NCBI GenBank assembly: GCA_965204115.1
Contig: OZ241963.1
Location: 377,548-441,547, forward strand
Source: Minisyncoccota bacterium
Lineage (GTDB): Bacteria; Patescibacteriota; Minisyncoccia; Phycocordibacterales; JABAAK01
DNA length: 64,000 nt
Direction of reading: 5' to 3'
Below are positions 14,973 through 33,179 of the stretch, in pieces (position 1 is the first letter of the stretch; every line of letters begins with the position of its first letter). The notes beneath the pieces were generated by a model, which saw only the letters and a list, made by a program, of their open reading frames with translations, did no database searches and had not been told where the DNA came from. Made by a program: the position numbers and the translations under genes.

Positions 14973-14983
14973 ATACTTCTGTA

Positions 14984-16283: not shown

Positions 16284-18281
16284 TTAATCTAAACCGAGGC
16301 GGTGAAAAAAAATATTATTCCTTTCCTCAGCGTCAGTTAATAATTGATCCCAAGTGACATATTCTATGTGTAGATTATAGGCACTATGCCACTTTACCCA
16401 TCTATGCCCATTTGGCAATTGCTTAAACTCTCTTCTTTCCAGCCAGATTTTTACCTTTTCCGAATAATCAGCAATAATATATCCATAAAATGGCGTATTG
16501 TCTGAAATCTGTATCGGCCTGTTTTGCGGACTTTTTATTTCTCCGCTTTTAATTTTCTCAACATAACGAATGATTTGATCATGGGAATCCTCTTTCGAAG
16601 AGGGGTTGGCAAAACTATCCTCGCCAGGTCTTTTAAATTCGAATATGGATACAGGATTACTCGGAACATCTGACCCCCTGAATGTTACTTTTTTATTAAA
16701 CACAATTAAATCAGCTCTGTCCTTGCATTTTTCAACAAAATCTTGATCTGACCTTAAATACTCAACAAAATTTAACCTTTCATCTAGTATCCAGAGATTG
16801 TGGTCACGGAAATGAACTTGTTCAGAGTCTTTCTTTGCGGGAAAAATTATATTGTGTAATGTATTTTCTTTTTCATGTTTTTTGTCTTCACCTATACCCA
16901 AGGCTCTGGTAAAAACATCTAAGTAAATTTTTCTCAATGTAACATAGTGCGCCAATTCACTCTGTTTTGCAGTGTCAATTTTTTCAAATGCCTCTTCTAT
17001 TTTCTTTTCTACATCCCCGTCAAAATTTTTCAAGACATCATTTATTTTCTCTCTACCGTCTTTTTCTTCTAGATATCTTGCGTTGTGAAAAACATCCTCC
17101 ATATCGTCATCTGATGGATTCATTGGTAATTTATCTAGGCCAATTTTTTCCTCGTAATGTTTATACCAAGGGTGCTTGTCTAGATATTCAGACACTTTCT
17201 GCTTCTTTTTTTCTCGCCTACTTTTCAAATCATCAGAATAAGTATTTTTCACAATTTCAGCGACTTTTTCTTCTATTTCCTTTTGAGAAAACGGATGCAG
17301 CATATCTTTTTCTTTATTAAACTTGAAACCTGATCTCTCCATGTTGACATTATCATTTAAGTATTTTCCTAAAACATAAGCCTTTATTATGTAATTCTTT
17401 TTGACCAACTTATTTCCCTTGGCAGACTCAGATTCTTCATAAAAATCATCATCGAACTCTGTAACATAATCAGAAAAATTCGCTGTGTCAACTTCTCTAT
17501 TGTGTGCAGTAAAGACCATCCTGCTTTTCTGTGAATTTGTAAAAAATACTTTAAACATTTTTACCTGGAAAGACTCTTTTCTGTTTTCATTTTTTAATAA
17601 AAATTTCTCTTCCTCATCCAAGAATATTTCATCACTATTATTAAACAAATCATTTAGAACTATCTCTTCGCACCCCTCTTCCTTTAAGACTATTTTTGGC
17701 ATTTTATCAGAAGAAACGAAGTACACAAGCATCCTTTCTAATATATTTCGTGCAACTGTTTTCAATTCTTTATCAAACCTCTTGTCTCCTAAAAGCCTGT
17801 TTAATAGAATAGTTGTTCCTGTTTCTTGAGCAATGTCTTTATCATATTTTGGGTTTTCTACTATGTCTCGCTTCTTGCCAAAATTAAATTCAATTGATTT
17901 TTGCTCATTTTTATCTTCATAGGTTGATTTAACTATAACTTTATCAAAATATTCTATATATGAAAATCTACCAAATCCTTTGCCACCTTTTGCGACTTTA
18001 TCATCTGTGTAAAGGGTATCAAAGGCATCTAGGTTATTTTTGTTTAAACCAATCCCGTTATCAAAGATTTCAACATTCAAAAAATGATTTTTTCCTGCGC
18101 TCTCCATCAATTTTTGCTGGTTTTCATCTCGTTTGAAAGTGACGGATATCAAACCGTCATCGTGATTTCCTTTCTCCTCAATTGCCTCAATACTGTTCAT
18201 TATTGCCTCAATAATAGGATGATAGACGGTACTTTTTCCACTCATATGTCTAACCACTCCCTCAATGTTTATCTTTGACAT
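16284..18281 (-). CDS. GHKL (Bergerat-fold) ATPase fused to a C-terminal restriction-endonuclease-like domain; paraMORC-like defence candidate
   Basis: N-box HPIIEAIMNSIEA, G1 box DNGIGL, G2 box GGKGFGRFS; long K/E-rich helical middle; C-terminal ADLIVFNKK..VSIFEFKRP is D..E-x-K-like. First gene of an apparent GHKL-M-R operon. Confidence 0.6.
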   Translation of the reverse strand: MSKINIEGVVRHMSGKSTVYHPIIEAIMNSIEAIEEKGNHDDGLISVTFKRDENQQKLMESAGKNHFLNVEIFDNGIGLNKNNLDAFDTLYTDDKVAKGGKGFGRFSYIEYFDKVIVKSTYEDKNEQKSIEFNFGKKRDIVENPKYDKDIAQETGTTILLNRLLGDKRFDKELKTVARNILERMLVYFVSSDKMPKIVLKEEGCEEIVLNDLFNNSDEIFLDEEEKFLLKNENRKESFQVKMFKVFFTNSQKSRMVFTAHNREVDTANFSDYVTEFDDDFYEESESAKGNKLVKKNYIIKAYVLGKYLNDNVNMERSGFKFNKEKDMLHPFSQKEIEEKVAEIVKNTYSDDLKSRREKKKQKVSEYLDKHPWYKHYEEKIGLDKLPMNPSDDDMEDVFHNARYLEEKDGREKINDVLKNFDGDVEKKIEEAFEKIDTAKQSELAHYVTLRKIYLDVFTRALGIGEDKKHEKENTLHNIIFPAKKDSEQVHFRDHNLWILDERLNFVEYLRSDQDFVEKCKDRADLIVFNKKVTFRGSDVPSNPVSIFEFKRPGEDSFANPSSKEDSHDQIIRYVEKIKSGEIKSPQNRPIQISDNTPFYGYIIADYSEKVKIWLERREFKQLPNGHRWVKWHSAYNLHIEYVTWDQLLTDAEERNNIFFHRLGLD

Positions 18282-18401: not shown

Positions 18402-19415
18402 TTATTCAACCGTGAGGACGATGCCGTCTTTTTGGTGGTGGGTTGCCCAGGAGAACCAGAGCTCGAAGTAGCCGGGTAGTTGTTTGTTGTTTGTGTGGGC
18501 TGTTATTTCGCCGCCGTTGCGGGTGATGGTGAGTGTTTTTCCTTGAATGATGAATGTTTGTGTGCCGTCTGTGAATTGTCGGTATGGGAGGGCGATTGAC
18601 TTTTCGCCGAGGGGGATGACATACATCAGCTCTTTCGCATGAAACCGTTTGTCTGAAACTGATACCGGAAATATGGTGTTTTCTGTTTCGGTGTAGCCGG
18701 CGTATGGGTTGGCTGTGTAGTTTCGCGAAAACCCGGTGTCGGTGCTCAGCACTTCTGTGTTTGGATATTTTTCCCGTACTTCACTCAGGGTTATAACCTG
18801 TAGCGGCAATATGGAGAGTTTTTCTCCGGTGTATGCGCCGACAACTGCATCAGTTCGCGCTTGTGACCACAGCGACTCAGTGGCGGTGTCGTACATAAGC
18901 AGATTGGATTCAAATAATAGTCCGCTCACACCGAAGCTGAGTGTTGTGCCTCCGACACGGCGGTCAAATACGATACCTGAGTCACAGAGCGGGCAGAAGG
19001 TGACGGCAATCGGTGTTTCACCTATCGTGTCGTTCACGATCTCATGCCAGACAAGAATGCTGTACGGATAAAAACGGCGTACTCCGTGCAGTGCGGCAAG
19101 AATGCCTCGTGCATCGTCCGCGACCTCTGTTTCGGAGAGTGGTACAAATGTCGGGTTGTTGATAGCAGGAATCCCGTCTTTCCCTGGCCCGCCGGACAAG
19201 ATGTCCTGGAGGTCAATGGTTTTCTTTGTGGTGTCAGTTTTGAGGCCGAAGGTAGGTAAGAATGACCGCTCTGCCGGCTCTGACGGTGCTGTTTTGTGCT
19301 GCCTGTTATAGAGCCCGGTAAGCAAGAGGAGTATAAAAAGGGTTATGGCGATTCCGGTGATGGATTTCCTGCTGAGTTCCTGTTGTGTCTTGCTTTTTGT
19401 GTTACATGTAGTCAT
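18402..19415 (-). CDS. DUF3179-family secreted protein
   Basis: N-terminal TM/signal region; GGPGKDGIPAINNPTF and a CPLCDSG motif typical of DUF3179. Confidence 0.6.
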   Translation of the reverse strand: MTTCNTKSKTQQELSRKSITGIAITLFILLLLTGLYNRQHKTAPSEPAERSFLPTFGLKTDTTKKTIDLQDILSGGPGKDGIPAINNPTFVPLSETEVADDARGILAALHGVRRFYPYSILVWHEIVNDTIGETPIAVTFCPLCDSGIVFDRRVGGTTLSFGVSGLLFESNLLMYDTATESLWSQARTDAVVGAYTGEKLSILPLQVITLSEVREKYPNTEVLSTDTGFSRNYTANPYAGYTETENTIFPVSVSDKRFHAKELMYVIPLGEKSIALPYRQFTDGTQTFIIQGKTLTITRNGGEITAHTNNKQLPGYFELWFSWATHHQKDGIVLTVE

Positions 19416-19454: not shown

Positions 19455-22400
19455 CTACTCCGCATCGTTGGAGTGGGTGGCGCCAATATTGCCCGCTCTG
19501 TCACGCACGATGAAACAGACGCCGTTTAGAGCGGTGGTGGGCAACTCGTAGAAGGTGAACGGTGTGTATTCGTCGCCATCGGTCGGGAAGACGGTGAGCG
19601 CGTCACATTCGGTTTTGGTCATCGCCTTTACCGCGACGGTGTCAACAGAGTCAACGGCCGCGGGCGGATCGCTGGGCGCGCCGAAGATGACTATGTCTTC
19701 GCTGCCAGTGATATTCCGGTCTTCTATACGAGAGAGCTGCATGCGCGGACTATTGACATCAATGGCAACGGTAAATTGTTCGGATTCCTGAGAGGTGTTC
19801 CCTGCGATGTCGGTCGCGGTCGCGGTGAGGGCGATAAGTCGTGATTCCTCAGGTAGGGTTCGGGTGATGGTGGCGGGAGTCCCGTCACTTCCAATGACTC
19901 CACTCGCGCCTCCTGAATCGGACAAAACAGCAACGGTATTCGGTTCAGCGCTTATCAAGAAGGTCAGATCGGTGAAGCGGTTGGTAATCCCATCCGAATT
20001 GCTCAAGCCGCTATCGTATTCGGTGGCGAGCGTGATGGCGGATGGCGGCGCGGGCGCGGTGGTGTCAATAATAATATCAAGCTGCTGTGTTGAAGTGGTC
20101 ACATTGCCCGGTATGTCCGAGACCGTTATACTCACCTGCTGCGGCTTGTTCTCGTCGTCGGGTTGCACGATGTAGGAGGCGTTGTAGCTGCCGGGGACAC
20201 CGGTTACCGACAGCGCGGTGCCGATCGCATCTGTGCCGGTGAATATACGCACGGTCGGTAGGGCGTTGTTGAAATTCAAATCTGACTCGGAAAATACTAT
20301 GTTGATGGTGTCACCCGCTTTCGCGTACTTACCGGTGTTGTTGACGGTGCCGGATGTGTTCGTGATGATCTCACCGACGAAAGGCGGTGTGGTGTCTATG
20401 TCAATGATACGCGCCGAGCGGGCGAACGAGACATTGCCGACTGCGTCGCGGGCGCGGAAACAGACATACTGCCCGTTGTACGCTTCGTCGTCCAGCACGA
20501 TACTTCCTCCGGAGGTGTAGAGATCGCCGTCTGTGTCGCTGTCAATCAGGGTTTCGTCACAGACATCACTTGTGATGACATATCGGTCGCCGGCATCCAC
20601 GGCAAGACCGGTCACGCTCGCGCTGACGACTTTTAGCCGGGCAGGGTCGGATGTCGGTCCGAATGGTGTTATGACCGGACCGGTTCGGTCTATGCCGGTA
20701 ATCTGCGCCGAGCGGGCGAACGAGACATTGCCGATTTCGTCGCGGGCGCGGTAACAGATGTAGCGTCCGTTGTATGCCTCGTTGTCCAGCACGATATTCC
20801 TGCCTGAAACATACAGATCACCATCGGCATCACTCGCGATTACGGTTTCATCACAGGCCCCGTCCGTGATGACATATCGGTCGCCGGCATCCACGGCAAG
20901 ACCGGTCACGCTCGCGCTGACGACTTTTAGCCGTGCTGTGCCGGGTTCCGGTCCGAATGGTGTTATGACCGGACCGCTCTGGTCTATGCCGATAATCTGA
21001 TCAGATCGCGTGAATGAGATATTGCCGACTGTATCAGCGGCGCGGAAACAGACATGCTGCCCGTTGTATGCTTCGTCGTCCAGCACGATACTCTCTCCGG
21101 AGGTGTAGAGCTCGCCGTCTGTGTCGGTTCTGATCAGGTCGGAATCACACGCATCGCCGGAGATGATGTAGCGGCTCTTTGCTACATCGGCATCGCCGGT
21201 GATACTGGCACTGACACTCTTGACGAGCGCCGGCTCGGTCGTTAGATCAGCAACCGCAATGGTCGGTGCTGTGGTGTCTATCCCGTCTATCTGTAGTGAG
21301 CGCACAAACGAGACATTGCCGGCTTCATCGCGGGCGCGGTAACAGATGTAGCGTCCGTTGTATGCCTCGTTGTCCAGCACGATATTCCTGCCTGAAACAT
21401 ACAGATCACCATCGGCATCACTCGCGATTACGGTTTCATCACAGGCCCCGTCCGTGATGACATATCGGTCGCCGGCATCCACGGCAAGACCGGTCACGCT
21501 CGCGCTGACGACTTTTAGCCGTGCTGTGCCGGGTTCCGGTCCGAATGGTGTTATGACCGGCGGTGTTCGGTCTATGCCGGTGATCTGTGCGGAACGGGCG
21601 AATACGATATTACCGATAGCGTCTCGTGTACGGAAACAGACATGCTGCCCGTTGTACGACTCACTGTTTAGCGCGACATTTGTGCCGGGAATATAGAGTT
21701 CGCCGTCGATATCGCTTGCAATCAGCGCTTCATCACAGGGCTCGCCTGAAATGATGTACCGCGTACCCGTGGCAACCAGTGAGAGATCCGTGATTTCTGC
21801 GCTGATGTTTTTTATTCGTGCCGTACCCCCGGAAAGCGCGGCGACATTGATAGACGGACCGGAGGTGTCTATCCCGTTTATTTGCTGCGAGCGGGCGAAC
21901 GAAACATTGCCGATCGCATCGCGGGCGCGGTAGCAGATGTAGCGTCCGTTCTGCTCCCGATCATCCAGTATGATACTGCCGCCGGAGGTATACGCCTCGC
22001 CGTCGGCATCACTCGCGATCACGGTTTCATCACAGACCTCGTCCGTGATGACATATCGGTTACCGACCGCCTCAGCGAAGCCGGTTACCCGTGCGTTGGC
22101 GACTTTCAGCCGCGCCGCGCCGGATTCCGGTCCGAACGGTGTGATGACCGGACCGCTGCGGTCTATGCCGGTGATCTGCGCGGAACGGGCGAACGAGACA
22201 TTGCCGATCGCGTCGCGCGCGCGGAAACAGACATATTGCCTGTTGTACGCTTCATCATCCAGCACGATACCGCCGCTCGGGGTATATGCTTCGCCGTCGG
22301 TATCACTTGCGATCACGGTTTCATCACAGACCCCGCCCGTGATGACATATCGGTTGCCGGCGTCTGCGGCAAGGCCGGTAATACTCACTGCGGCGACTTT

Positions 22401-25400
22401 TACCTGCAAGGTACCGGGTTCCGGACCGACCGGTGTGATGACCGGTGGTGTCCTATCTATGTCGGTTATTTGCTCAGATCGGGCGAACGAGACATTGCCG
22501 ACCGTGTCAGCGGCGCGGAAACAGATATATTGCCCATTGTACGATTCATCGTCAAGCGCGATATCCGTGCCGGAGGTATACGGCTGTCCGTCTGCGCTAC
22601 TGCCGATGAGAGAGGCATCGCAGGCACCAGTTGAAATAGCATACTGACTACCGACGGTTGCTGATCTGTCGGTTATCACTGCGCTGACGGTCTTCTCTTG
22701 TGAGGTTCCCGATGCCGGATTGTTCAGGGTGATAGTCGGACCGACACGGTCAATGCCGGTGATCTGCTCAGATCGGGCGAACGAAACATTGCCGACCGTG
22801 TCTGCTGAGCGGAAGCAGACATACTGCCCGTTGTATGTCTCGTTGTCCAGCGTAATGTCCGCGCCGGGGACATAGGGTTCGCCATCTGAGTCGCTGCCGA
22901 TGAGGTCTGTGTCGCAGGCGCCGTTTGCAATACGGTACCGACTACCCGCTGCTGCAACATTGCCAGTAATGGTGGCACTGACGGTTTTTGTCTGTGCTTC
23001 ACCGGTGATTGGTTCAGTAATAGTGATCACCGGAGCAGTTCGGTCTATCCCGCTGATCTGTTCGGAACGGGCGAATGCGATGTTACCCACTTCATCGCGA
23101 GCGCGGAAACAGACATAGTGTCCGTTGTGTGCCTCTTCATCCAGCACGATGTTCTCGCCGGCGGTGTAATTCACGCCATCTGAGTCGCTACTGATGAGTC
23201 TGCTGTCACAGTTTCCGTCTGAGAGTATATATTGCGTACCGGTGTCAACAGGCAGTCCGGTCGCGCTCGCGCTCGCGACTTTCAGCCGCGCAAGACCGGC
23301 TGACGGACCGAGTGTCGTGATAACCGGTGGTGTCCTATCTATGCCGGTGATCTGCTCAGATCGGGCGAACGAAACATTGCCGACCAAATCTGAAGCGCGG
23401 AAACAGGCGTACTGCCCGTTGTATGTCTCATCGTTGAGCGCGATGGTCGCGCCGGAGGTGTACGGTCTGCCGGTCGCGCTGTTACCGATGAGCGATTCAT
23501 CACAGGAGGCATCTGAAATGATATAGCGTGTGTCCGTCGTGATTGCACCGTCGGTAACAATCGCGCTGACAAACTTCTCCTGCGCGGCACCTGTTGACGG
23601 GTCGTTCAGGGTGATGGTCGGACCGGTGCGATCTATGTCAGTGATACGCGCCGAACGGACGAACGAGACATTGCCTGCCGCGTCTCGAGCGCGGAAACAG
23701 ACATGTTGCCCGTTGTATGACTCGTCGTCAAGCGTGATATCCGTGTCGGAGGCATAGAGTTCGCCATCCGCGTCGCTACTGATGAGGGTCGCATCACAGG
23801 CGGATGATGTAATAAGGTATCGCGTGCTCTCAGCGACCGCATCACCGGTGATGACGGCACTCACCAGTTTTTCCCGCGCGTCGCCGAATGCCGGATCAAC
23901 CACCCGCACTGTCGGTGCAGTGCGGTCTATGCCGGTGATCTGCGCGGAACGCGTGAACGAGACATTACCGACCGCGTCGCGAGCGCGGAAGCAGACATAC
24001 TGTCCGTTGTATGCCTCGTCATCAAGTGTGATACTCTTGCCGGAGGTGTATGCTTCGCCGGCAATGTCGCCGCTGATAAGGGTTGCATTGCAGACACTGC
24101 CGGCAATAGTGTACCTGCTGCCGGTAATAGCGGCATCCTCGGCAATCGCAGCGCTGACGGTCTTTTCCCGCGCCGCTCCCACTACCGGATCGGTTACTGT
24201 TACTGTCGGACCGGTACGATCTATGCCGGTGATCTGCTCAGATCGGGCGAACGAGACATTACCGACCGCGTCGCGTGCGCGGAAGCAGACATATTGCCTG
24301 TTGTACGCCTCGTCGTTGAGTATGATGGTCGCGCCGGAGATATACGGTCTGCCGGTCGCGCTGTTACCGATGAGCGATTCATCACAGGAGGCATCTGAAA
24401 TGATATAGCGTGTGTCCGTCGTGATTGCACCGTCGGTAACAATCGCGCTGACAAACTTCTCCTGCGCGGCACCTGTTGACGGGTCGTTCAGGGTGATGGT
24501 CGGGCCGGTGCGATCTATGTCGGCTATCTGCGCGGAGCGGGCGAATGAGACATTGCCTGCCGCATCCGAGACGCGGAAGCAGACATACTGTCCGTTGTAT
24601 GCTTCATCGTTGAGCGCGATATTTGTGCCGGAGGCATAGAGTTCACCATCTGTATTACTGCTGATGAGTGCTGCGTCACAGGCGGATGATGTAATAAGGT
24701 ATCGCGTGCTCTCAGCGACCGCATCACCGGTGATGACGGCACTCACCAGTTTTTCCCGCGCGTCGCCGAATGCCGGATCAACCACCCGCACTGTCGGTGC
24801 AGTGCGGTCTATGCCGGTGATCTGCGCGGAACGCGTGAACGAGACATTACCGACCGCGTCGCGCGCCCGGAAGCAGACATACTGCCCGTTTTGCAGCTCA
24901 TTGTTCAGTGTAACCTCCTCTCCGGAGGTGTATGCTGCCCCTTCGGTATCGCTGCCGATGAGATCAGCATCACAATCTTCAGAAGAGATGGCGTACCTGC
25001 TGCCGGCAGTAGCGGCATCTTCGGCAATCGCAGCGCTGACGGACTTCTCTCGCGCTGTTTCTCCTGCCGGATTGGTCACTGATACTGTCGGACCGGTACG
25101 ATCTATGCCGGTTATCCGCGCGGATCGGGCGAAGACGATGTTATTCACTGTGTCACGCGCCCGGAAGCAGACATACTGTCCGTTGTATGCCTCGTCATCA
25201 AGTGTGATACTCTCGCCGGAGGTGTATGCCGTTCCCTCAGTATCGCTTCCGATGATGTCCGCATCGCAGTCCTCGGTTGTGATGTCATATCGGCTTGCCG
25301 CGGCAATCAGGTGGGTGTCCTCAATCTCCGCGCTGATACTCTTCAGCTGTGCCGCTCCTGATGTCGGCTCGGTGATACTGATTGACGGCTTAATCCGGTC

Positions 25401-28400
25401 AATACCGTCAATCTGCGCCGACCGAGTGAACGAGACATTGCCGACTGCGTCGCGTGCCCTGAAGCAGACATGTTGCCCGTTGTACTCTTCCTTATCCAGG
25501 TTGATGGTATTACCGGCGGTGTAGGAGGTGCCGTCTGTGTCGCTGCCGATGAGATCACTGTCGCAGTCTTCGGTTGTAATGGCATATCGGCTACCGATGG
25601 CGATCGCGATGCCGGTAATACTCGCGCTGACCACTTTCAGCGGCGAGACCCCCGCTGTCAAGCCGAGTGTCGTAATAGTCGGACCGGTGCGGTCTATGCC
25701 GGTTGTCTGCGCGGAACGGGCGAATGAAATATTGCCGGCACTGTCGGATGCCCGGAAGCAGATATGCTGCCCGTTGTATACCTCATCATTAAGGGTTATG
25801 CTCTCTCCGGATTGGTATGTCTGCGCATTGAAACCGATAAATAGTTCAGTATCACAATCTTCGTCTGCAATGCGGTACTTTGTTTCCGTCGCTGATGAGT
25901 CCGTGATCTTGGCACTCACGGTTTTTGTCCGCGCCGCGCCGGTTGCCGCCTCGGTGATGGTGATGTTCGGACCGCCGGTGTCAATGGTTACAGTGATGTC
26001 AGATGTCCATGCGTCCGTATTGCCGGCATCGTCCAGCGCCTGTAAGTATATCCGTTGTGGACTGCGGTTCTCGTCACCGACAGCGATGGTATAGGTGCCA
26101 GTATAGGTGCCGTCGGCACCCTTATTCACCGTTACACTTTCACCGCTTGTCTTCCCGCTGCTGAAAATTCGCATAACCGGATCGGTTCCCAAATGCTCGT
26201 CAACGATCACAGCGTTCACGGTGATGGTATCCCCCGTGCCGGCATAGGTAGTGCCGTCAGCGTCGGAACCTGAGCTCGTTATGGTTACTCCCCCGAAGGT
26301 CGGTTCCGTTCGGTCAATGTTGTCAATCACCGAAGAGCGCGCGAAACGCACATTACCCGCTTCGTCGCGTGCCCGGAAACAGACATACTGCCCGTTTTGC
26401 AGCTCATTGTTCAGTGTAACCTCCTCTCCGGAGGTGTACGCTGTCCCTTCGGTATCGCTGCCGATGAGATCAGCATCACAATCTTCAGAAGAGATGGCGT
26501 ACCTGTTCCCCACACTGACCGGGTTCGCGTCCGTGATGGTCGCGGCAACGGTTTTCTCCCGCGCTGCGCCTTCCGCCGGTTCTGTGACGCTGATTGTCGG
26601 TGCGCTTCGGTCTATTCCGGTGATCACCGATGAGCGCGCGAATGAGATATTGCCGATAATATCCCGGGCGCGGAAACAGACATACTTACCGTTATGCTGC
26701 TCACTGTTCAGATCAATGTCCGTGCCGGAGATGTATGCATTGCCGCTACTGTTGTCGCTGATAAGGTTTTCATCGCATGCGCTCTCTGAAATGACATACC
26801 GTGCACCGGCGATAACGATGTTTTTGTCCGTGATGCCCGCTTTGAGCGTCTTTTCCTGTGCCGCGCCGGTGGCGAGTGATCCGACACTGATAACCGGATC
26901 AACTGTGTCAATGATGACTCCGATATCGACTCCGCGTCCGCTGAGGTTTCCGGCTGCGTCACGCGCCTCCATGTGCAGGAGTTGCGTTGAACGATCTTCA
27001 TCGTCGGCACGCACGGTGTAGGTCGCGGTGTAGGTGCCGTCGTTGTTGTCGGTCACTTGCATTGCTTCGCCGAGTGTGCTGTTCTCGCTGAAAATCTTGA
27101 CTGTGGGCAGTCCGCTGAAGTTCGTGTCCGATACAGAGAGTGTGGCGGTGATGGTGTCTCCCGCTCCGGCATAGTAGGTGCTTTCGTAGGCACTGTCTGT
27201 GGTGACCGAAACGGTGCTAATAACCGGATTCGTTCGGTCAATGCCGGTGATCACTTTTGAGCGGGCGAACGAAATATTGCCCACCGCATCGCGCGTCCTA
27301 ACACAGAGGTACTTGCCGTTGTAGGTTTCACTGTTGAATGCGATGCCGCTGCCGGAAACATACCGATCGCCTTCAGTGTCCGAACCGATGACCTCCTCGT
27401 CACAGGAGCCGTTCGCAATGATCGCGCGGCGAGTGCCGGCGGCAATTGCATCCGCACTGATGGTCACACTAATTGTCTTTGTGTTCGTTACACCGTCCGG
27501 ATGAATAATACTGATTGTCGGCCCGGTGCGGTCAATACCGCTTATTTTCGCCGATCTCGCGAAGACGACATTCCCCGCCTTGTCCCGCGCGCGGAAGCAG
27601 ACATACTGCTCGTTATACGCTTCGTCGTTCAGCGTGATCTCCGCGCCGGAGGTGTAACTGTTGCCGCTCGTGTCGCTTGCGATGAGGTCTTTATCGCATG
27701 TTTTGTCTGAGATACTGTAGCGAGTGCCGCTCGTGAGTATGCCGCTGCCGACATCACTGAGTGTCGCGCTGACTGTTTTCTCCCGTGATCCGCCTGCTGG
27801 TATAGCGGTAACACTGACAGTCGGCGCCGCGGTATCAATGACCACCCCGAGTGTGCCGGTGCCGGTGCTGACATTGTCGGCGTCATCCTGCGCCCGCACA
27901 AATATCTTTTGCACAGCACTGTCTTCGTCATCAGGGCGTACTGTGTGGGTTAGCGTATAGTTTCCATTATCAATTCTGTTCACCGTCATAGCGGTGCCGC
28001 CCGTCGTTGTCTCGCTGAATATCCGCGCTTCCGGAAGTGCGATGAGATTTGAATCGGCAATGAGTACGGTTCCGGTGATAATATCCCCCGCTTTCGCATA
28101 CTTCACACCGTTGGCAGTGATGCCGGTGGTGGTGATATGTATATTACCGATCGCCGGACTGATTCGGTCTATTCCGGTGATCATCGACGAGCGGGCGAAC
28201 ACGATATTGCCGGCACTGTCACGCGCGCGGAAGCAAACATACTTCTCGTTGTAATGTTCACTGTCCAGCGCGACATTATTACCGGAAGTATATGCCTTGC
28301 CATCATCGTCATTGCCAATGAGGTCTGCATCACAATCGTCTGCTGAAATAGTGTAGCGGGTGCCGCTGGTGTCCGCGTCCGCGCTGACAATCGCGCTGAT

Positions 28401-31400
28401 GCCTTTCTCCCGCTGCACGCCGCTCCTCGCCTCGGTAATACTGATGGTCGGTGCCGTGGTGTCTATGCCCGTCACTTGTGTCGAACGCGCGAATGAGACA
28501 TTGCCCGCGACATCAATTGTCCGAAAGCAGACATAACTGCCATTTTGCGCTTCGTCGTCCAACACAATCGCGCGACCGGAGGTGTAGGGTTCGCTGTTCG
28601 CACTGGCTGCCAGGGTACTCTCGTTGCAGATTGAGCTTTTTGAAATGAGGTATCGCGCACTTTTGGGGTTCGCGTCTATTATTTTCGCACTAACGGTTTT
28701 TTCCTGTGCCGTGCCGCTTGATGCTTCGGTAACGGTAATCGTCGGTACGGTGGTGTCAACAATTATTGTTTTTCCGTATCCGTCGGTACCGCCGGCGTAG
28801 GTGGTGTCGGGAATGGTGTTACCCACTGCATCGGCAATTGCCTTGATGGTGAAGCTTAGATCACCGTTCTCCCCCGCGACAACAGTGTGTACCCATTGAA
28901 AAATTTTCGCATTATTCGCGCCGTCTTGCGACAAAATGATCGGTGTGCCGGTGACGGTCTCTCCGTCCAGATGTATCGCTATGCGACTAACCGCGTTATC
29001 CGAGAAACTGAGCTGGTCAGCGACGGTTGCCTGGATGGTTATCTGATCTCCCGCCTGTGCGGCAGTTGTAATCTCGTTGTTCGTGGTCGCGTGTACGCTT
29101 GAGAGTGTCGGCGGGGTGGTTTCCGCTTCAATAATCTTAATTTCCTGACTTTCGTCGGGTGCTGCGTTTCCCGCATTGTCCTTTAAATCGGTAACAGACC
29201 ATCTCAACACGCCGTTGTCTCCGGGCTGGATCGTGTACGGGTACCGTACATGACCGGCGGCGGCACCCTCAACAGTACCCGCTTCCGCATCTCGGTACGC
29301 TTCGTCGCCGAACTTTACTTTCCAGAGCCCCGCGCTGTGCGAAGAAAAGCCGCTGGCGCTCACTTCGTTGTTGTATCTCCGTTCAATGATGATCGTACTG
29401 CCTGCCGGAAGGTACTTAACGACGCCGTCAAATCTTTTTTTGGCGGCATCGCTGGTGCCGTTGATGTAATAATCGGTTGCACTTGCAACCGGTCTCGTGG
29501 TGTCTATGACCACCCCGATGTCAACGCGATGACCTCCGGCATTACCGGCATCATCACGCGCCTCCAGGTGAATCTTTTTCGGGGTTTTACTCTCATCGCC
29601 CGACTGGACGGTATAGGTGGCGATGTACCCCTGCTCGCCGGTTTTCCTCACGGTCATGCCGGTGCCGCCGGCAGCGCTCTCGCTGAATACTCGCATCACC
29701 GGAAGCGTGGTCAGGTGCTCGTCAGAAACGGTTGTAGTCGCGACGATGTCATCCCCCGCTTTTGCGTATTTATTGGTGCCGTAGACATTGCCCGAAGTGG
29801 TTACGGCGATATTCCCTATTACCGGATTTGTGCGGTCTATGTCGGCGATTTGCGCCGAACGCGCGAATGAGACATTGCCGAGTGTGTCACGCGCGCGGAA
29901 ACAGATGTAGGAACCGTTCTCATCTTCCCTGTTCAGCGTGATAACACTGCCGGAGGTGTAGTTCACACCGGCGGTGTCACTCCCGATAACACTTTCGTCG
30001 CAGTCCTCAGATGAAACTGTGAAACGGATACTGCCGGTGACGGCAGTTGCGTCAATTGTCGCGTGCATGGTTTTCTGTCGAGCAGCACCTCCTCCGGGTC
30101 CGACAGTGGTGATAGATGGTCCCGTCCGGTCTATGCCGTTTATCCGCGCAGATCGCGCGAACGAAATATTACCCGCTTTATCGCGTGCCCGAAAACAGAG
30201 ATATGTGCCGTTGTACCCTTCATTTTTCAGGACGACAGCTTCGCCTGAAGTCCATGCGCTCCCCACCCCATCACTACCGATGAGTGCTTCGTCACAAGTC
30301 GCGCTTGAGATAACATAACGGTTGCCGGTTGCGTCCGTGTTGGTGTCTGTTACGGTCGGGGTTATGCTCTTGCTCTGCGCTGCGCCTGACGCAGGGTCGG
30401 AGATGCTGAGTGCCGGGCTTGTGGTATCGATTTTCATCGCGTTCGTTGACACCTGCACGGTTGTGCTTTTGCCGTCGCTTGCCGCGAAACAGGCATATTT
30501 GCCGGAATGATTTTCTGTGTTGAAAGTTGCCGTGTACTCCTCGCCACGCTCCGGTGACGGAACGACCACAAAGGATGTTGGCGGTGTGGTGCCGTTATAT
30601 GTGGAATTATCGAGGCATTCTGCACTGGTTTCGACTTGCTGATAGCTCAAGTACAGCGTGTCATTTGGGTTAACATCACTAAGGCGCACGGTAAAGCCGT
30701 GCGATCTTGCCCAAGTGTTCGGGATATCATTAATTATTGTCAGTATCGGTGGGGTATTTTGTGGTGCGATAGCCGGAGAGACAGCACTGCGTATGTTTCC
30801 TGAGTAATCTTCCGCATAGACGCATATCTTGTCGGACAGGGCATTCGGCACGGTATACGAGTAGGACACCTCCTTTGGTAATCCCCCCGGTTCCACGACT
30901 TTCCCGCTGCTGACCTCGTTGTAGGTATCGCAGGCAGTTGAGTCCTCAGACCCGCTGATTTTTAGTGCGCCGTAGCGGTATATACCTGACTGGCTGTCTG
31001 TAATATTGATCGTATAGTTTTTTTCCACTTCTGGTGTGCCTGGAAAGGTTATAATAGGGGTGGTGTTATCCGGCTCATCTGCTTCAATGCTGTTGAGTGT
31101 CCAGGTTTCGTTATTCGCAGTGTTGCCCGCATTGTCGCTCGGTCCGGTGAGGGAAAATTTGAGTACGCCGTCGTCGCCAGGAGCGATGGTGTATGAGTAC
31201 CTCACCCTGCTGTTGCTGTCAAACACGGTGCCGTTGCTCATATTCCTCCACCGTCCGTTGCCGAATCTGATCCGCGCTACGCCGGCGTTCCCCGGAGACA
31301 GACCGCTCTCTCTTCCTTCGTTGGCGTACAACAGCATAATGGCAATCCGGGTGCCGGCGTTCACTTTACTGTGAACATTGAGATTTTTCTTCACCTCGTT

Positions 31401-31907
31401 AATGAAATAGTCAGTTGTGGTGCGTACCGGAGGTCTGGAATCTATTCGCAGTGTTCCGTGGAGCGGTATGTTCACGATGCCCCATGTGTCAAAAAACGAC
31501 ACGCATGCCTTGTTTGTTACTGTAAATAAACCGTGCTTAATGGGAAACTGTATGTTCCTTGTCTGTTCTCGATTACCCGGCACACTCAGCTGTACGCTAT
31601 TTGAAATTTCAGTCGCGTGGCCGTTGCAATTTGGATGTGAAAAATTGAGAAGACGCATCTCGGGGCGCACGGTCGCGGAGCTGAATGTCCGGTAGGTGAA
31701 GGTTACCCATGCGGCGATAGTATCGTTGTTACCCAGCCACCTGTTAATATTTGAAGTGTACGAAGCCCTGTTCGCCGCAAAAACATTCGGCATAAACACC
31801 GTTAAACCGATGAACGGCACAAAACATATGAGTAAAATATAAAGGGCTACTCGATACCTGCGAACGAAAAAAGACCTGTCCATAGGTGATGGGACTAAAA
31901 TTGACAA
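19455..31907 (-). CDS. Giant (4150 aa) membrane-anchored surface protein with ~35-40 tandem ~95-aa Ig-like repeats
   Basis: Single 12.45-kb ORF with N-terminal TM helix. Repeat unit ..GIDRTGPTI(T/S)..G.A.EKTVSA.I.D....RY.IS...CD..LIGSD..G..YTSG..I.LDDEAYNGQYVCFRARDAVGNVSFARSAQIT. Many repeats are near-identical at the DNA level. Confidence 0.85.
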   Translation of the reverse strand: MSILVPSPMDRSFFVRRYRVALYILLICFVPFIGLTVFMPNVFAANRASYTSNINRWLGNNDTIAAWVTFTYRTFSSATVRPEMRLLNFSHPNCNGHATEISNSVQLSVPGNREQTRNIQFPIKHGLFTVTNKACVSFFDTWGIVNIPLHGTLRIDSRPPVRTTTDYFINEVKKNLNVHSKVNAGTRIAIMLLYANEGRESGLSPGNAGVARIRFGNGRWRNMSNGTVFDSNSRVRYSYTIAPGDDGVLKFSLTGPSDNAGNTANNETWTLNSIEADEPDNTTPIITFPGTPEVEKNYTINITDSQSGIYRYGALKISGSEDSTACDTYNEVSSGKVVEPGGLPKEVSYSYTVPNALSDKICVYAEDYSGNIRSAVSPAIAPQNTPPILTIINDIPNTWARSHGFTVRLSDVNPNDTLYLSYQQVETSAECLDNSTYNGTTPPTSFVVVPSPERGEEYTATFNTENHSGKYACFAASDGKSTTVQVSTNAMKIDTTSPALSISDPASGAAQSKSITPTVTDTNTDATGNRYVISSATCDEALIGSDGVGSAWTSGEAVVLKNEGYNGTYLCFRARDKAGNISFARSARINGIDRTGPSITTVGPGGGAARQKTMHATIDATAVTGSIRFTVSSEDCDESVIGSDTAGVNYTSGSVITLNREDENGSYICFRARDTLGNVSFARSAQIADIDRTNPVIGNIAVTTSGNVYGTNKYAKAGDDIVATTTVSDEHLTTLPVMRVFSESAAGGTGMTVRKTGEQGYIATYTVQSGDESKTPKKIHLEARDDAGNAGGHRVDIGVVIDTTRPVASATDYYINGTSDAAKKRFDGVVKYLPAGSTIIIERRYNNEVSASGFSSHSAGLWKVKFGDEAYRDAEAGTVEGAAAGHVRYPYTIQPGDNGVLRWSVTDLKDNAGNAAPDESQEIKIIEAETTPPTLSSVHATTNNEITTAAQAGDQITIQATVADQLSFSDNAVSRIAIHLDGETVTGTPIILSQDGANNAKIFQWVHTVVAGENGDLSFTIKAIADAVGNTIPDTTYAGGTDGYGKTIIVDTTVPTITVTEASSGTAQEKTVSAKIIDANPKSARYLISKSSICNESTLAASANSEPYTSGRAIVLDDEAQNGSYVCFRTIDVAGNVSFARSTQVTGIDTTAPTISITEARSGVQREKGISAIVSADADTSGTRYTISADDCDADLIGNDDDGKAYTSGNNVALDSEHYNEKYVCFRARDSAGNIVFARSSMITGIDRISPAIGNIHITTTGITANGVKYAKAGDIITGTVLIADSNLIALPEARIFSETTTGGTAMTVNRIDNGNYTLTHTVRPDDEDSAVQKIFVRAQDDADNVSTGTGTLGVVIDTAAPTVSVTAIPAGGSREKTVSATLSDVGSGILTSGTRYSISDKTCDKDLIASDTSGNSYTSGAEITLNDEAYNEQYVCFRARDKAGNVVFARSAKISGIDRTGPTISIIHPDGVTNTKTISVTISADAIAAGTRRAIIANGSCDEEVIGSDTEGDRYVSGSGIAFNSETYNGKYLCVRTRDAVGNISFARSKVITGIDRTNPVISTVSVTTDSAYESTYYAGAGDTITATLSVSDTNFSGLPTVKIFSENSTLGEAMQVTDNNDGTYTATYTVRADDEDRSTQLLHMEARDAAGNLSGRGVDIGVIIDTVDPVISVGSLATGAAQEKTLKAGITDKNIVIAGARYVISESACDENLISDNSSGNAYISGTDIDLNSEQHNGKYVCFRARDIIGNISFARSSVITGIDRSAPTISVTEPAEGAAREKTVAATITDANPVSVGNRYAISSEDCDADLIGSDTEGTAYTSGEEVTLNNELQNGQYVCFRARDEAGNVRFARSSVIDNIDRTEPTFGGVTITSSGSDADGTTYAGTGDTITVNAVIVDEHLGTDPVMRIFSSGKTSGESVTVNKGADGTYTGTYTIAVGDENRSPQRIYLQALDDAGNTDAWTSDITVTIDTGGPNITITEAATGAARTKTVSAKITDSSATETKYRIADEDCDTELFIGFNAQTYQSGESITLNDEVYNGQHICFRASDSAGNISFARSAQTTGIDRTGPTITTLGLTAGVSPLKVVSASITGIAIAIGSRYAITTEDCDSDLIGSDTDGTSYTAGNTINLDKEEYNGQHVCFRARDAVGNVSFTRSAQIDGIDRIKPSISITEPTSGAAQLKSISAEIEDTHLIAAASRYDITTEDCDADIIGSDTEGTAYTSGESITLDDEAYNGQYVCFRARDTVNNIVFARSARITGIDRTGPTVSVTNPAGETAREKSVSAAIAEDAATAGSRYAISSEDCDADLIGSDTEGAAYTSGEEVTLNNELQNGQYVCFRARDAVGNVSFTRSAQITGIDRTAPTVRVVDPAFGDAREKLVSAVITGDAVAESTRYLITSSACDAALISSNTDGELYASGTNIALNDEAYNGQYVCFRVSDAAGNVSFARSAQIADIDRTGPTITLNDPSTGAAQEKFVSAIVTDGAITTDTRYIISDASCDESLIGNSATGRPYISGATIILNDEAYNRQYVCFRARDAVGNVSFARSEQITGIDRTGPTVTVTDPVVGAAREKTVSAAIAEDAAITGSRYTIAGSVCNATLISGDIAGEAYTSGKSITLDDEAYNGQYVCFRARDAVGNVSFTRSAQITGIDRTAPTVRVVDPAFGDAREKLVSAVITGDAVAESTRYLITSSACDATLISSDADGELYASDTDITLDDESYNGQHVCFRARDAAGNVSFVRSARITDIDRTGPTITLNDPSTGAAQEKFVSAIVTDGAITTDTRYIISDASCDESLIGNSATGRPYTSGATIALNDETYNGQYACFRASDLVGNVSFARSEQITGIDRTPPVITTLGPSAGLARLKVASASATGLPVDTGTQYILSDGNCDSRLISSDSDGVNYTAGENIVLDEEAHNGHYVCFRARDEVGNIAFARSEQISGIDRTAPVITITEPITGEAQTKTVSATITGNVAAAGSRYRIANGACDTDLIGSDSDGEPYVPGADITLDNETYNGQYVCFRSADTVGNVSFARSEQITGIDRVGPTITLNNPASGTSQEKTVSAVITDRSATVGSQYAISTGACDASLIGSSADGQPYTSGTDIALDDESYNGQYICFRAADTVGNVSFARSEQITDIDRTPPVITPVGPEPGTLQVKVAAVSITGLAADAGNRYVITGGVCDETVIASDTDGEAYTPSGGIVLDDEAYNRQYVCFRARDAIGNVSFARSAQITGIDRSGPVITPFGPESGAARLKVANARVTGFAEAVGNRYVITDEVCDETVIASDADGEAYTSGGSIILDDREQNGRYICYRARDAIGNVSFARSQQINGIDTSGPSINVAALSGGTARIKNISAEITDLSLVATGTRYIISGEPCDEALIASDIDGELYIPGTNVALNSESYNGQHVCFRTRDAIGNIVFARSAQITGIDRTPPVITPFGPEPGTARLKVVSASVTGLAVDAGDRYVITDGACDETVIASDADGDLYVSGRNIVLDNEAYNGRYICYRARDEAGNVSFVRSLQIDGIDTTAPTIAVADLTTEPALVKSVSASITGDADVAKSRYIISGDACDSDLIRTDTDGELYTSGESIVLDDEAYNGQHVCFRAADTVGNISFTRSDQIIGIDQSGPVITPFGPEPGTARLKVVSASVTGLAVDAGDRYVITDGACDETVIASDADGDLYVSGRNIVLDNEAYNGRYICYRARDEIGNVSFARSAQITGIDRTGPVITPFGPTSDPARLKVVSASVTGLAVDAGDRYVITSDVCDETLIDSDTDGDLYTSGGSIVLDDEAYNGQYVCFRARDAVGNVSFARSARIIDIDTTPPFVGEIITNTSGTVNNTGKYAKAGDTINIVFSESDLNFNNALPTVRIFTGTDAIGTALSVTGVPGSYNASYIVQPDDENKPQQVSITVSDIPGNVTTSTQQLDIIIDTTAPAPPSAITLATEYDSGLSNSDGITNRFTDLTFLISAEPNTVAVLSDSGGASGVIGSDGTPATITRTLPEESRLIALTATATDIAGNTSQESEQFTVAIDVNSPRMQLSRIEDRNITGSEDIVIFGAPSDPPAAVDSVDTVAVKAMTKTECDALTVFPTDGDEYTPFTFYELPTTALNGVCFIVRDRAGNIGATHSNDAE

Positions 31908-32018: not shown

Positions 32019-33179
32019 TTAGTCACGGATGGTGACTACTTGCCCGTTTTCAATTCGCTTTTTGACATGGGAGACGCCGGTTATGTCGCCGTTTTCGTCA
32101 AATTCGTGTTTTCCGGTGACACCGTCATATCCTTCCAGGTCGTCCAAGTACTTTCTGATCGCGTCGGTGTCTTCCGAGCCGACTGCCGCAACAGCTTCGG
32201 CAAGGATGTAGACATTGTCATATGCGGCACCGGTGTAGTACTCAATGCTCAGGTGACCGTATCGTCTTTCGTATTCCTCCAGGAATTCCACCGCTTTCGG
32301 GTCACTGTGATCCAGCTCAGGGTTGTCAAAGAAAGTGAGTCCCTCTATCGCATCACCGGCGGTTTGGATCACTTCCGCGCTTGAGAGCACATTGGTCCCG
32401 TACAGCGGAACAGTGATGCCTGCTTCTTTGATCTGCTTGATGATCGTGGCACCGGCGTCTCCTTGTGGGTTGATAAAGATCGCTTCGGGATTCGTCGACT
32501 TTATTCTCGCGATAATGTCACTGAAGTCAGTCGTGCCGGGAGCGAATCGCTCACTGTCAAGGATGGTTCCGCCGGCCTTCACGAAGTGTCCCTCAAGCAC
32601 CCGCTCCAAGGCGAGCGCATATTCGGTCTCTTCGGCAATCGTCGCGATCTTCTTATACCTTTTCAGAATTACATCAGCCAGAAAGAACCCGCCGGCCGCG
32701 TCAGACGGACTACTACGGAAGAAGTATCTCCCTGCACCGGTCAGGTTTGGGCTGGATGCTGAAGGTGAGAAGACAATTACTTTCTCTCCCTCGGTAACCG
32801 CGAGCATCGCCTGCGTTTCACTGCTGCAAACGCCGCCGATGATCATTTTCACTTTGTCAACATTCACCAGCTTGTATGCTACCTCCACGGCATCTTTAGC
32901 GGTACATTTACCGTCTTCATAGACCACCCGTAGCTCCCGACCGTTTATTCCGCCGGCGGCATTAATGTTATCTACTGCCATCTCGACACCATTGCGAATC
33001 GGGTTTCCGTATGATGCCGCACTTCCGGTCAATGCGCCGATGAACCCGATGGTAACCGGACTCGTGTCCTGAGGAGCGCGCGACCCCGAAGTTAATTCTG
33101 ATTGTGATATATATTGATACCCGAACCATAGTGCTATAACTGCAGCGATACCAATTACCACTTTTGTTGTTGTATTCAT
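32019..33179 (-). CDS. LivK-like (Peripla_BP_6) solute-binding protein, N-terminal TM anchor
   Basis: 386 aa; matches branched-chain amino acid SBP-family motifs; paralog of 33311..34507 and 61611..62743. Confidence 0.8.
   Translation of the reverse strand: MNTTTKVVIGIAAVIALWFGYQYISQSELTSGSRAPQDTSPVTIGFIGALTGSAASYGNPIRNGVEMAVDNINAAGGINGRELRVVYEDGKCTAKDAVEVAYKLVNVDKVKMIIGGVCSSETQAMLAVTEGEKVIVFSPSASSPNLTGAGRYFFRSSPSDAAGGFFLADVILKRYKKIATIAEETEYALALERVLEGHFVKAGGTILDSERFAPGTTDFSDIIARIKSTNPEAIFINPQGDAGATIIKQIKEAGITVPLYGTNVLSSAEVIQTAGDAIEGLTFFDNPELDHSDPKAVEFLEEYERRYGHLSIEYYTGAAYDNVYILAEAVAAVGSEDTDAIRKYLDDLEGYDGVTGKHEFDENGDITGVSHVKKRIENGQVVTIRD

Follow-up and report, generated by a model that had tools for sequence, protein, structure and literature searches.

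A single gene of a Kaiserbacteria-like CPR bacterium, lying in the 64-kb window analyzed here (the whole stretch of DNA, 64,000 nucleotides long), probably encodes a fibrillar surface or adhesin protein that would be exported by the Sec pathway and stabilized by predicted disulfides. Along its chain about 40 beta-sandwich domains of all types are set in series, among them 27 copies of a canonical unit of 98 aa (294 bp) that account for 64% of the protein. The first-pass annotation had described a protein composed almost entirely of 35–40 repeats of ~95 aa; the tandem repetition is real, but its measured period is 294 bp or 98 aa, the canonical units fall well short of the whole chain, and a figure of about 40 is reached only as the total over all beta-sandwich types.

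The gene had been correctly recognized as one uninterrupted frame, and its 12.4 kb contain neither an internal stop nor an N (Table 1). Its true start is probably the ATG at 31883 (Met9), which gives a 4142-aa form identical to the database protein P0006; the product is an acidic protein of ~431 kDa (pI 4.45, about 4.5). The earlier placement of the host among CPR/Patescibacteria-like bacteria is borne out by PGK, whose closest matches are Ca. Kaiserbacteria and Paceibacterota MAGs at 58–60% identity, and by the 661,662-bp contig. The genomes of CPR bacteria are tiny, and since this gene fills ~1.9% of a 0.66-Mb contig, its product is probably central to the contact of the cell with its host or surroundings; no other gene of the small genome is likely to be larger. 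Several plus-strand ORFs, the longest of 286 aa, are nested within the gene; as none of them extends beyond this gene, which is itself under purifying selection, the view that they are artefacts remains the simplest reading. Promoter and terminator scans around the giant gene returned nothing convincing.

Table 1. Coordinates of the giant gene, its domains, its longest exact repeat and the adjacent DUF3179 gene (positions in the window)
Feature	Position	Strand	Details
Giant ORF	19455..31907	-	4150 codons from TTG at 31907; stop codon 19455-19457
Sec-type signal peptide or signal anchor (predicted), aa 9-44	31776..31883	-	N-terminal; read from translation
Unique N-terminal domain, aa 45-154	31446..31775	-	cysteine pair C94/C135; hhalign, Pfam, AF2
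A1 (aa 155-285), then degenerate B1 (286-395) and B2 (396-504)	30396..31445	-	translation, hhalign, HMM
Proximal half, aa 505-1983	25959..30395	-	four R-R-I super-modules plus A2 and C
Uninterrupted array R9-R27, aa 1984-3847	20367..25958	-	19 canonical units; spacing 294 or 297 bp
C-terminal region: I5 (aa 3848-3954), Big_13 (3955-4054), degenerate T (4055-4150)	19458..20366	-	
Longest exact repeat within the gene, 233 bp	20740..20972 = 21328..21560		units R26 and R24; offset 588 bp
DUF3179 protein, 337 aa	18402..19415	-	39 nt downstream of giant-gene stop; Pfam DUF3179, 257 bits

The chain can be parsed into a unique N-terminal domain, the 27 canonical units (R1–R27), three degenerate units, and nine cysteine-free Ig-like domains, namely five of type I, two of type A, one of type C and one Big_13. 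It begins with what appears to be a Sec-type export signal: a basic n-region (MDRSFFVRRYR) is followed by ~20 hydrophobic residues and then by PNVFA|AN, with a Kyte-Doolittle maximum of 2.63 (19-residue window). The hydrophobic N-terminus noted at first pass is present, and a cleavable Sec signal peptide fits it as well as the membrane anchor that it was called. A lipoprotein signal before Cys28 was considered and rejected, as the sequence there is LLIC, with an Ile at -1 that is unlike the usual lipobox pattern. The unique domain that follows shows an hhalign probability of ≤1% against every other domain type of the protein and no match in a Pfam scan, and a word-index homology search with the N-terminal segment aa 38–503 gave zero matches; single-sequence AF2 predicts it as all-beta at a pLDDT of 47.6, a model that is unusable. 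Of the degenerate units next to it, B2 shows a relationship with the canonical unit (hhalign 93%, HMM E=9e-6), and both B1 and B2 keep their cysteine pairs (326/362 and 431/473, respectively).

The proximal half is built of the super-modules R1-R2-I1, R3-R4-I2, R5-R6-I3 and R7-R8-I4, with A2 (aa 812–935) and C (aa 936–1060) inserted behind I1. A2 is paralogous to A1, the two having motifs in common in translation, and hhalign links the canonical unit to the I domain, in its C-terminal half (89.5%). Beyond the uninterrupted distal array, the Big_13 domain (PF19077) is recognized in a whole-protein scan at aa 3955–4050, covering profile positions 4–101 of 102, and when the C-terminal segment is scanned alone it reaches 41.7 bits (cut-off 27), a match that applies to this one domain only. 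The terminal unit T, with cysteines C4101 and C4131, is another relative of the canonical unit (hhalign 91%).

The canonical units are far from near-identical, as had been claimed for them: pairwise amino-acid identity averages 53% (range 40–90%), and only three pairs are close, i.e., R24/R26 at 90%, R14/R17 at 88% and R13/R16 at 86%. At the DNA level they are mostly 60–70% identical. Likewise, identity over more than 230 bp, earlier ascribed to several repeats, is found in one pair only (Table 1); the duplicate reported at 20770–21000 and 21358–21590 is real, but these intervals overshoot the exact stretch and are 95.7% identical. The next-longest exact repeats, of 188 and 161 bp, lie at an offset of 882 (R12–14 versus R15–17) and are bordered by stretches at 64–83% identity, a mosaic of exact and diverged patches of the kind that is typical of gene conversion. 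The string put forward as an invariant core is a consensus, as only 13 positions are invariant across the 27 units: K10, C34, N62, C67, R69, D72, N76, F79, R81, S82, I88, D89 and P93.

The evolutionary behavior of the gene can be followed at a syntenic ortholog locus in a relative that was assembled independently (L001). The two proteins align over 3213 aa, comprising the first 22–23 units, with only two gaps (of 3 residues and 1 residue), and a dN/dS of about 0.22 over 2243 gap-free codons indicates that the gene is under purifying selection. The giant proteins are 81% identical, as against 92–93% for the flanking DUF3179 and NusA proteins, and such faster change than in the neighbors is typical of fast-evolving surface proteins. 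This change is unevenly spread: units R1–R13 have one-to-one positional counterparts (73–86% identity in R1–R8 and 81–88% in R9–R13), whereas at R14–R22 the identity by position is only 46–78%, a sign of unit turnover in that part. The sequence of L001 breaks within the distal array at a 100-N scaffold gap, and a reading of the break as a frameshift or pseudogene was discarded on that account.

This comparison also bears on the rival view of the gene as a product of misassembly or a pseudogene in decay, with an apparent length owed to mis-joined repeats. The exact internal repeats of 161–233 bp, the gap in the distal array of L001 and the antisense ORFs that its automatic gene calls list in the repeat region speak for that view. 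Yet the frame runs open through its whole length, the two assemblies agree over the aligned residues, the dN/dS speaks for a maintained protein, and the units, being mostly only 60–70% identical in DNA, are easy to assemble. An under-resolved repeat number, which the first-pass annotation thought probable, could at most concern R12–R17 and R24–R26, by multiples of 2–3 units. An artefactual or decaying gene is thus very improbable, and an intact gene with a stable proximal half and a fast-turnover distal half is the reading we adopt; together with the domain map and the cysteine pair, this division offers handles for experiments.

The most constant feature of the unit is its pair of cysteines. 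The protein has 63 cysteines, which resolve into one in the signal peptide and 31 within-domain pairs, with one conserved pair in each of the 27 canonical and three degenerate units. Both C34 and C67 are invariant in 27/27 canonical units, and they are the sole invariant columns in an alignment of 47 diverse family units taken from many proteins. Of 1231 family domains, 75% have a Cys at position 67; among those that align at position 34, 81% have one at that site. From the conservation of the pair, C34–C67 can be proposed as a candidate intradomain disulfide. AF2 models one canonical unit at a pLDDT of 83.1 as a generic beta-sandwich of five strands that also has one short helix; Foldseek searches of this model against the PDB and BFVD returned nothing at E≤0.001, and a PDB sequence-profile search with the unit returned nothing below E about 1.

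The first-pass annotation could not assign the unit to a named family, and indeed no curated Pfam family matches the canonical unit. Two units of the giant protein gave a lone weak match in Pfam, to Big_6 (PF17936) at E 0.051, and of the 47 diverse family units only 2 had a match in Pfam, at E≥0.006. For Big_3_3 (PF13750) single units show no match to the 157-position profile; the whole protein reaches 54 bits, with a lone stretch at aa 457–521 that falls at a domain junction and covers profile positions 2–74 of 157. What Big_3_3, Big_6 and Big_13 have in common with the unit is a general motif of strand and linker, 'D-x-A-G-N ... I-D-x-T-x-P'. Among named models, a repeated signal comes from one alone, the OmpL47-type NCBIfam model NF047446, whose whole-protein sum of 61.9 bits against a cut-off of 40 is reached with no single stretch passing the cut-off; individual units, at 13.8–18.5 bits over model positions 27–67 of 68, stay far below it. 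The model matches 16/47 of the diverse family units weakly (best E 1.5e-5). Its matches cover only positions 27–65 of 68, the C-terminal 'Y..G...L....N..Y.C....D.AGN' half, and leave out the N-terminal half of the unit with its first cysteine. Leptospira, the source of OmpL47, is a diderm. OmpL47 itself is a 39-kDa protein that was found by experiment to be surface-exposed (PMC2698987).

An exhaustive profile search recovered relatives of the unit in at least 1885 cluster representatives at E≤1e-3, 112 of them at E≤1e-30, many being proteins of 3–7 thousand residues with up to 42 units. Among the best 153 family matches, 36 have a C-terminal transmembrane segment, four carry an LPxTG-type motif (e.g., LPDTG in P0011) and a fifth has a weaker LPSSG; some members terminate in peptidoglycan-binding-like repeats. 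By these transmembrane, LPxTG-type or peptidoglycan-binding-like ends, the family is one of cell-surface proteins. Other searches were far less productive: a word-index search with a three-unit query gave five matches only and missed the protein's own database entry, one with the 47-sequence family profile gave two short fragments, a scan of GTDB representative genomes with repeat-derived patterns gave no relative, the JGI metagenome contigs gave two distant matches only, and IMG/VR viral contigs gave none. The unit thus belongs to a large family of domains, shared by many giant proteins from metagenomes, that lies outside the Pfam release searched and outside solved structures.

Like fibrillar adhesins, the protein has a stalk of many tandem beta-sandwich domains, and no identifiable adhesive tip domain was found in it. 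The latter point, together with the acidic pI, is what might be expected of a structural component of the envelope, such as an S-layer, a sheath or a spacer coat, rather than of a specific adhesin; in Foldseek the unit model also hits the S-layer protein HPI of Deinococcus (E=0.69), and 2/47 family units weakly match the Pfam family S-l_SbsC_C. These matches are, however, all non-significant and generic for beta-sandwiches. A single 431-kDa chain of ~40 domains is closer to fibrillar adhesins than to lattice-forming S-layer proteins, and the LPXTG motifs or C-terminal transmembrane segments of the relatives are single-molecule anchors. We therefore hold a coat function to be rather improbable and continue to favor a fibre.

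How such a fibre might be held at the cell is less apparent from its ends. The C-terminus (...RDRAGNIGATHSNDAE) has no LPXTG or other sorting motif and no transmembrane segment (Kyte-Doolittle maximum 1.01), and a search of the giant protein for a cell-wall-binding Pfam domain found none, so that of the recognizable cell-surface anchors none is present and only the N-terminal hydrophobic segment could serve as one. With neither the motif at its C-terminus nor a sortase in the window, the protein falls outside the sortase-anchored LPXTG class, and with no RTX or T1SS-related Pfam match in it, outside the SiiE/LapA class as well. As there is no recognizable anchor, cleavage of the signal peptide could simply set the protein free. 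It would then be a scaffold for a biofilm or matrix, or else a soluble protein with a binding or decoy function, instead of a cell-attached fibre. A plausible signal-peptidase I site (VFA|A) would allow this, the lack of a sortase gene nearby agrees with it, and the C-terminus is not a conserved anchor, given that the L001 ortholog ends earlier, without the Big_13 and terminal domains. Against release, the ~20-residue hydrophobic core is long enough for an uncleaved signal anchor, non-covalent retention is conceivable, and the family relatives are clearly anchored. On balance, release appears unlikely, and attachment to the cell is the reading carried forward.

The giant gene is flanked by the gene for the DUF3179 protein and by two Peripla_BP_6 genes. 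An adjacent secretion or sortase system, for which the first-pass annotation had suggested a search, is absent: Pfam scans of 40 ORFs in the window turned up no sortase, pilus or dedicated secretion genes, and the HlyD-FtsX-ABC genes at 57.7–61.5 kb are MacAB-like and 26 kb away. The DUF3179 protein has a transmembrane segment at its N-terminus and one CxxC motif only (CPLC, aa 141–144); the DUF3179 family has selenocysteine (UxxC) forms. No terminator-like site was found to separate the two genes on the minus strand, and L001 keeps their adjacency, with DUF3179 proteins that are 91.7% identical. The DUF3179 gene may be functionally linked to the giant gene. As a family-wide rule the adjacency does not hold, being absent beside distant members at L007–L010, and the link therefore concerns two closely related genomes only. 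A doubtful proposal would see the 98-aa unit as an uncurated, disulfide-locked Ig-like family that builds giant surface fibres, with the fibre and DUF3179 genes forming a two-gene module in this Kaiserbacteria-like lineage; the DUF3179 protein would then be a dedicated extracytoplasmic thiol-disulfide oxidoreductase, installing or proof-reading the ~31 predicted disulfides.

In the mechanism that we infer, in which the place at the surface, the disulfides, the extended shape, the adhesion and any partner are all putative, the N-terminal signal would steer the protein into the Sec pathway, and the units would fold extracellularly, each held by one intradomain disulfide. The chain might then reach ~130 nm from the cell, as scaled from SiiE, whose 53 BIg domains span 175 nm (PMC6272769). 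Such a fibre could act as a reach-and-stick adhesin or as a spacer toward a host cell or surface; host attachment, the role suggested at first pass, may be among its functions. The distal uninterrupted array would vary by unit turnover and gene conversion, such that length and surface come to differ.

Several known systems offer parallels. The adhesin of Mobiluncus mulieris, of 7651 aa, has a tandem Ig-like stalk with intradomain cross-links that include disulfides (PMC10619420). With it and with the Cpe0147-type proteins of Clostridium perfringens, fibrillar or giant adhesins of monoderm bacteria, the present protein shares the organization as one giant ORF with an N-terminal export signal and tens of ~100-aa Ig-like domains, as well as a candidate covalent lock in each domain, which is here a cysteine pair. 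Unlike them, it has no LPXTG motif or sortase, no thioester and no recognizable tip, and its domain family is a different one.

CPR bacteria are generally regarded as lacking an outer membrane. A second parallel can be struck with type-I-secreted giant adhesins of diderms (SiiE, LapA and the Bap family), in which dozens of Ig-like repeats likewise form a length-setting stalk with a variable number of repeats (PMC6272769, PMC4647330). The acidic composition, with conserved Asp/Asn residues that might bind Ca2+, is common to both. In contrast, SiiE relies on a T1SS signal at its C-terminus and on an ABC/MFP/OMP operon next to its gene, whereas the giant protein has an N-terminal Sec signal with no adjacent T1SS and, unlike T1SS adhesins, no RTX repeats.

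A third parallel is Vampirococcus lugosii, whose giant membrane proteins of 1392–4163 aa, with PKD, WD40, integrin, fibronectin and DUF11 domains, are predicted to lie at the surface and have been proposed to act in host recognition and attachment (PMC8080830). It too is a CPR bacterium that encodes giant proteins despite a reduced genome, a likeness that is by description only; it belongs to the Absconditabacteria, whereas the host of the giant gene is Paceibacteria/Kaiserbacteria-like. Giant surface proteins of tandem Ig-like domains are already well known, also in the CPR, and the present result refines that picture without overturning it.

The single giant ORF described in the first-pass annotation is borne out: it has no ambiguous bases, and an ATG at 31883, eight codons past the TTG, yields a 4142-aa product identical to a public protein (P0006 in NCBI and ENA; 661,662-bp contig). 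Tandem Repeats Finder detects two arrays with a period of 294 bp and 67% matches, and counting by motif and by profile HMM alike gives 27 canonical 98-aa units (R1–R27, from the N- to the C-terminus), as against the 35–40 near-identical repeats first claimed. Nor are the units near-identical: their pairwise amino acid identity averages 53% (range 40–90%), with only three close pairs (R24/R26, 90%; R14/R17, 88%; R13/R16, 86%), and unit-to-unit DNA identity is mostly 60–70%. The identical stretches of more than 230 bp that had been noted are real in substance, but only one such pair exists (233 bp, 20740–20972 and 21328–21560, about 30 bp off the positions first given); the next longest exact repeats measure 188 and 161 bp, each copy lying 882 bp from its partner. 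Likewise, the core string taken to be invariant reduces to just 13 truly invariant columns, viz., K10, C34, N62, C67, R69, D72, N76, F79, R81, S82, I88, D89 and P93. The GC content of the gene, 55–58% (20001–30000) against about 50% in the flanks, may stem from the Thr/Ala/Gly/Asp-rich make-up of the protein, not from foreign ancestry.

Canonical units account for 64% of the giant protein, and the remainder is modular too. The chain opens with a hydrophobic signal (aa 9–44), a unique domain N (aa 45–154) and domain A1. B1 and B2, degenerate units in which the cysteine pair persists, come next, ahead of four R-R-I super-modules, the first of which is separated from the second by domains A2 and C. 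Then 19 units (R9–R27) run without interruption up to the fifth I domain, and the C-terminal end is formed by a single true Big_13 domain (41.7 bits; cut-off 27) and another degenerate unit (T). In hhalign comparisons with the canonical unit, B2, T and the C-terminal half of the I domain score 93%, 91% and 89.5%, respectively; domain N shows no relation to any other domain of the protein. The overall total of about 40 domains probably accounts for the original repeat count. There are 63 cysteines—one in the signal peptide and 62 in 31 within-domain pairs—and none in the I, A, C and Big_13 domains. After putative cleavage between VFA and A, the predicted mature protein is about 431 kDa with a pI of 4.45.

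Structure prediction of one repeat, suggested at first pass, gave a confident small beta-sandwich (AlphaFold2 with the 27 units as alignment; pLDDT 83.1, pTM 0.70). Foldseek searches with this model found no matches at E ≤ 0.001 in the PDB or among the viral structures of BFVD, and the unit sequence profile reached no lower than E of about 1 against PDB chains. Against Pfam, two single units gave only one weak match (Big_6, E 0.051), and 47 diverse units of the wider family matched Big_3_3 weakly in two cases; the 54 bits that Big_3_3 reaches over the whole protein stem from a single segment where two domains meet. Among named models, NCBIfam NF047446 (OmpL47-type beta-barrel domain) alone gives a recurrent signal: it scores 61.9 bits against the whole protein (cut-off 40) and 13.8–18.5 bits against single units, covering model positions 27–67 of 68, and is weakly matched by 16 of the 47 units (best E 1.5e-5). 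In light of these structure and family searches, the unit is treated here as belonging to the bacterial Ig-like/E-set world, where it forms a branch outside curated families and has the OmpL47-type domain as a distant relative.

Searched exhaustively with the profile, 1.84 billion cluster representatives yielded 1885 proteins at E ≤ 1e-3 (568 at ≤ 1e-10 and 112 at ≤ 1e-30), many of them 3,000–7,000 residues long with 10–42 matched units. Aligning the 47 diverse units, drawn from many of these proteins, leaves no column invariant except the two cysteines. Of 1231 domain matches, 75% have Cys at position 67; at position 34 it is present in 81% of the matches that align over that site. Such conservation argues strongly for a structural role of the pair, which would most simply be an intradomain disulfide. 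Among the top 153 relatives, 36 have a C-terminal transmembrane segment, four have LPxTG-type motifs (a fifth has a weaker LPSSG), and a few finish in peptidoglycan-binding-like repeats; P0011, one of the four with an LPxTG-type motif, has LPDTG, then a transmembrane segment, then a basic tail. Judged by these endings, this is a cell-surface family. That the giant protein is an envelope or S-layer component is a rival reading, and an improbable one. The window protein itself carries none of the three endings, and the adjacent secretion or sortase system that had been proposed for checking did not materialize, there being no sortase, pilus or dedicated secretion system among the 40 window ORFs scanned. 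A released matrix protein would be compatible with the lack of such endings, though the anchored relatives speak against it; this reading is unlikely, if slightly less so than the S-layer role.

A syntenic relative (L001; ENA ERZ23495130, scaffold_1644) has the gene order giant gene, DUF3179, variable genes, NusA. Residues 232–3444 of the window protein are 74.8% identical to its ortholog, with two gaps only (3 residues and 1 residue) in the global alignment; residues 232–2474 align gap-free over 2243 codons, with 81% amino acid identity and a dN/dS of about 0.22, as against 91.7% identity for DUF3179 and 92.9% for NusA. These values indicate that the giant gene is functional and constrained, yet changes at two to three times the rate of its neighbors. 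R1–R13 have one-to-one positional orthologs (73–88% identity); from R14 on, positional identity is 46–78% and the best matches are non-positional. Within the window gene, patches of 100% identity lie between stretches of 64–83% identity, a mosaic that points to gene conversion. Together, these patterns mark the proximal half as stable and the distal array as dynamic, and the C-terminal end is variable as well, its last 200 residues (Big_13 and T) being absent from the L001 ortholog. A frameshift in L001 was rejected, the break being a scaffold gap of 100 N within the distal array (L001 9642–9741). This gap shows that short-read assemblers do struggle there, but two independent assemblies agree over the first 22–23 units, which argues against gross collapse in the window; that the ORF is an assembly artifact is thus very hard to credit. 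The gene is real and well resolved over most of its length. Public gene calls at L001 1516–8573 list antisense ORFs of 88–255 aa without Pfam matches inside the repeat region, an example of how such genes are mis-annotated.

Features of the window
Feature	Position	Strand	Remarks
MauE-like	2679–3167		redox cluster
Multicopper oxidase	3172–4599		redox cluster
Spondin_N domain protein	4760–5488		redox cluster
Thioredoxin	5500–5973		redox cluster
CcdA/DsbD_TM protein	5979–6725		redox cluster
Trigger factor	9804–10883	minus	short, 359 aa; N- and C-terminal domain matches only, no PPIase domain
Low-GC island	14131–18281		33–39% vs about 50% GC; adjoins tRNA-Gly(GCC)
241-aa ORF	within 14131–18281		unassigned
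N6/N4 DNA methylase	14984–16225		in island
HATPase_c_3 protein	16284–18281		665 aa; in island
DUF3179 gene	18402–19415	minus	39 nt downstream of giant gene
Giant ORF	19455–31907	minus	4150 codons from TTG
Peripla_BP_6 (Liv-type), two	within 32019–34507	minus	directly upstream of giant gene
Kelch/beta-propeller repeats + Peptidase_S11	37694–39610	minus	638 aa; D-Ala-D-Ala carboxypeptidase domain
Class-I lysyl-tRNA synthetase	43055–44728	minus	
tRNA-Ile, anticodon TAT (UAU)	53516–53589	plus	ARAGORN
Peripla_BP_6 (Liv-type), third	61658–62743	plus	

The CPR/Patescibacteria origin is upheld by the window PGK, 60% identical to that of a Candidatus Kaiserbacteria MAG and 58% to a Paceibacterota MAG PGK; the 0.66-Mb contig presumably fits it as well, as do the class-I LysRS and short trigger factor, both seemingly in keeping with a reduced genome of CPR type. 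None of the three Peripla_BP_6 paralogues was seen to have an ABC permease or ATPase gene as its immediate neighbor. At the position of the low-GC island, between DUF3179 and NusA, L001 has different genes (IucA/IucC-like and an HNH/DUF8245 protein), and this position looks like a variable defense or mobile-element slot. The combination of Kelch repeats and Peptidase_S11 seems unusual. Among bacteria, which mostly read AUA with a lysidine-modified CAU tRNA, a tRNA-Ile(UAU) is probably rare.

No terminator-like site lies between the giant gene and the DUF3179 gene on their shared strand. The DUF3179 protein carries a transmembrane segment at its N-terminus and, at aa 141–144, just one CxxC motif (CPLC), and its family includes selenoprotein forms with UxxC/T (PMC9312934, PMC13188914), presumably at the same site, which by established reasoning marks that site as redox-active; a role of the protein as thiol oxidoreductase outside the cytoplasm is therefore possible. 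The gene of a membrane-anchored putative oxidoreductase beside that of a protein that would need about 31 disulfides makes a suggestive link, to be taken as a lead only; the adjacency occurs in just two closely related genomes (the window and L001) and is absent beside distant family members (L007–L010). The extracytoplasmic redox gene cluster (2679–6725) bears on how disulfides would be handled in a cell whose probably largest protein contains 31 pairs of cysteines.

The giant protein is best seen as a Sec-exported, disulfide-stabilized, rod-like surface fiber of about 40 domains. Export would proceed via the N-terminal segment, either cleaved or retained; disulfides would form within units, and the fiber would stay at the surface with no recognizable anchor. 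Scaled from SiiE (PMC6272769), with 53 domains in 175 nm, the fiber would reach a length of roughly 130 nm and might act as a long-reach adhesin or spacer, with a presumed binding partner and one or the other end as its tip. The initial reading as a giant CPR surface protein was thus broadly right, with repeat number and similarity overstated. A matching role has already been proposed for the giant surface proteins of Vampirococcus, a CPR predator (PMC8080830), and the proposed fiber resembles the Ig-like stalks, held by cross-links, of giant adhesins from Gram-positive bacteria (PMC10619420); the giant protein is a further case of this already known kind, made from an uncurated disulfide-type Ig-like unit.
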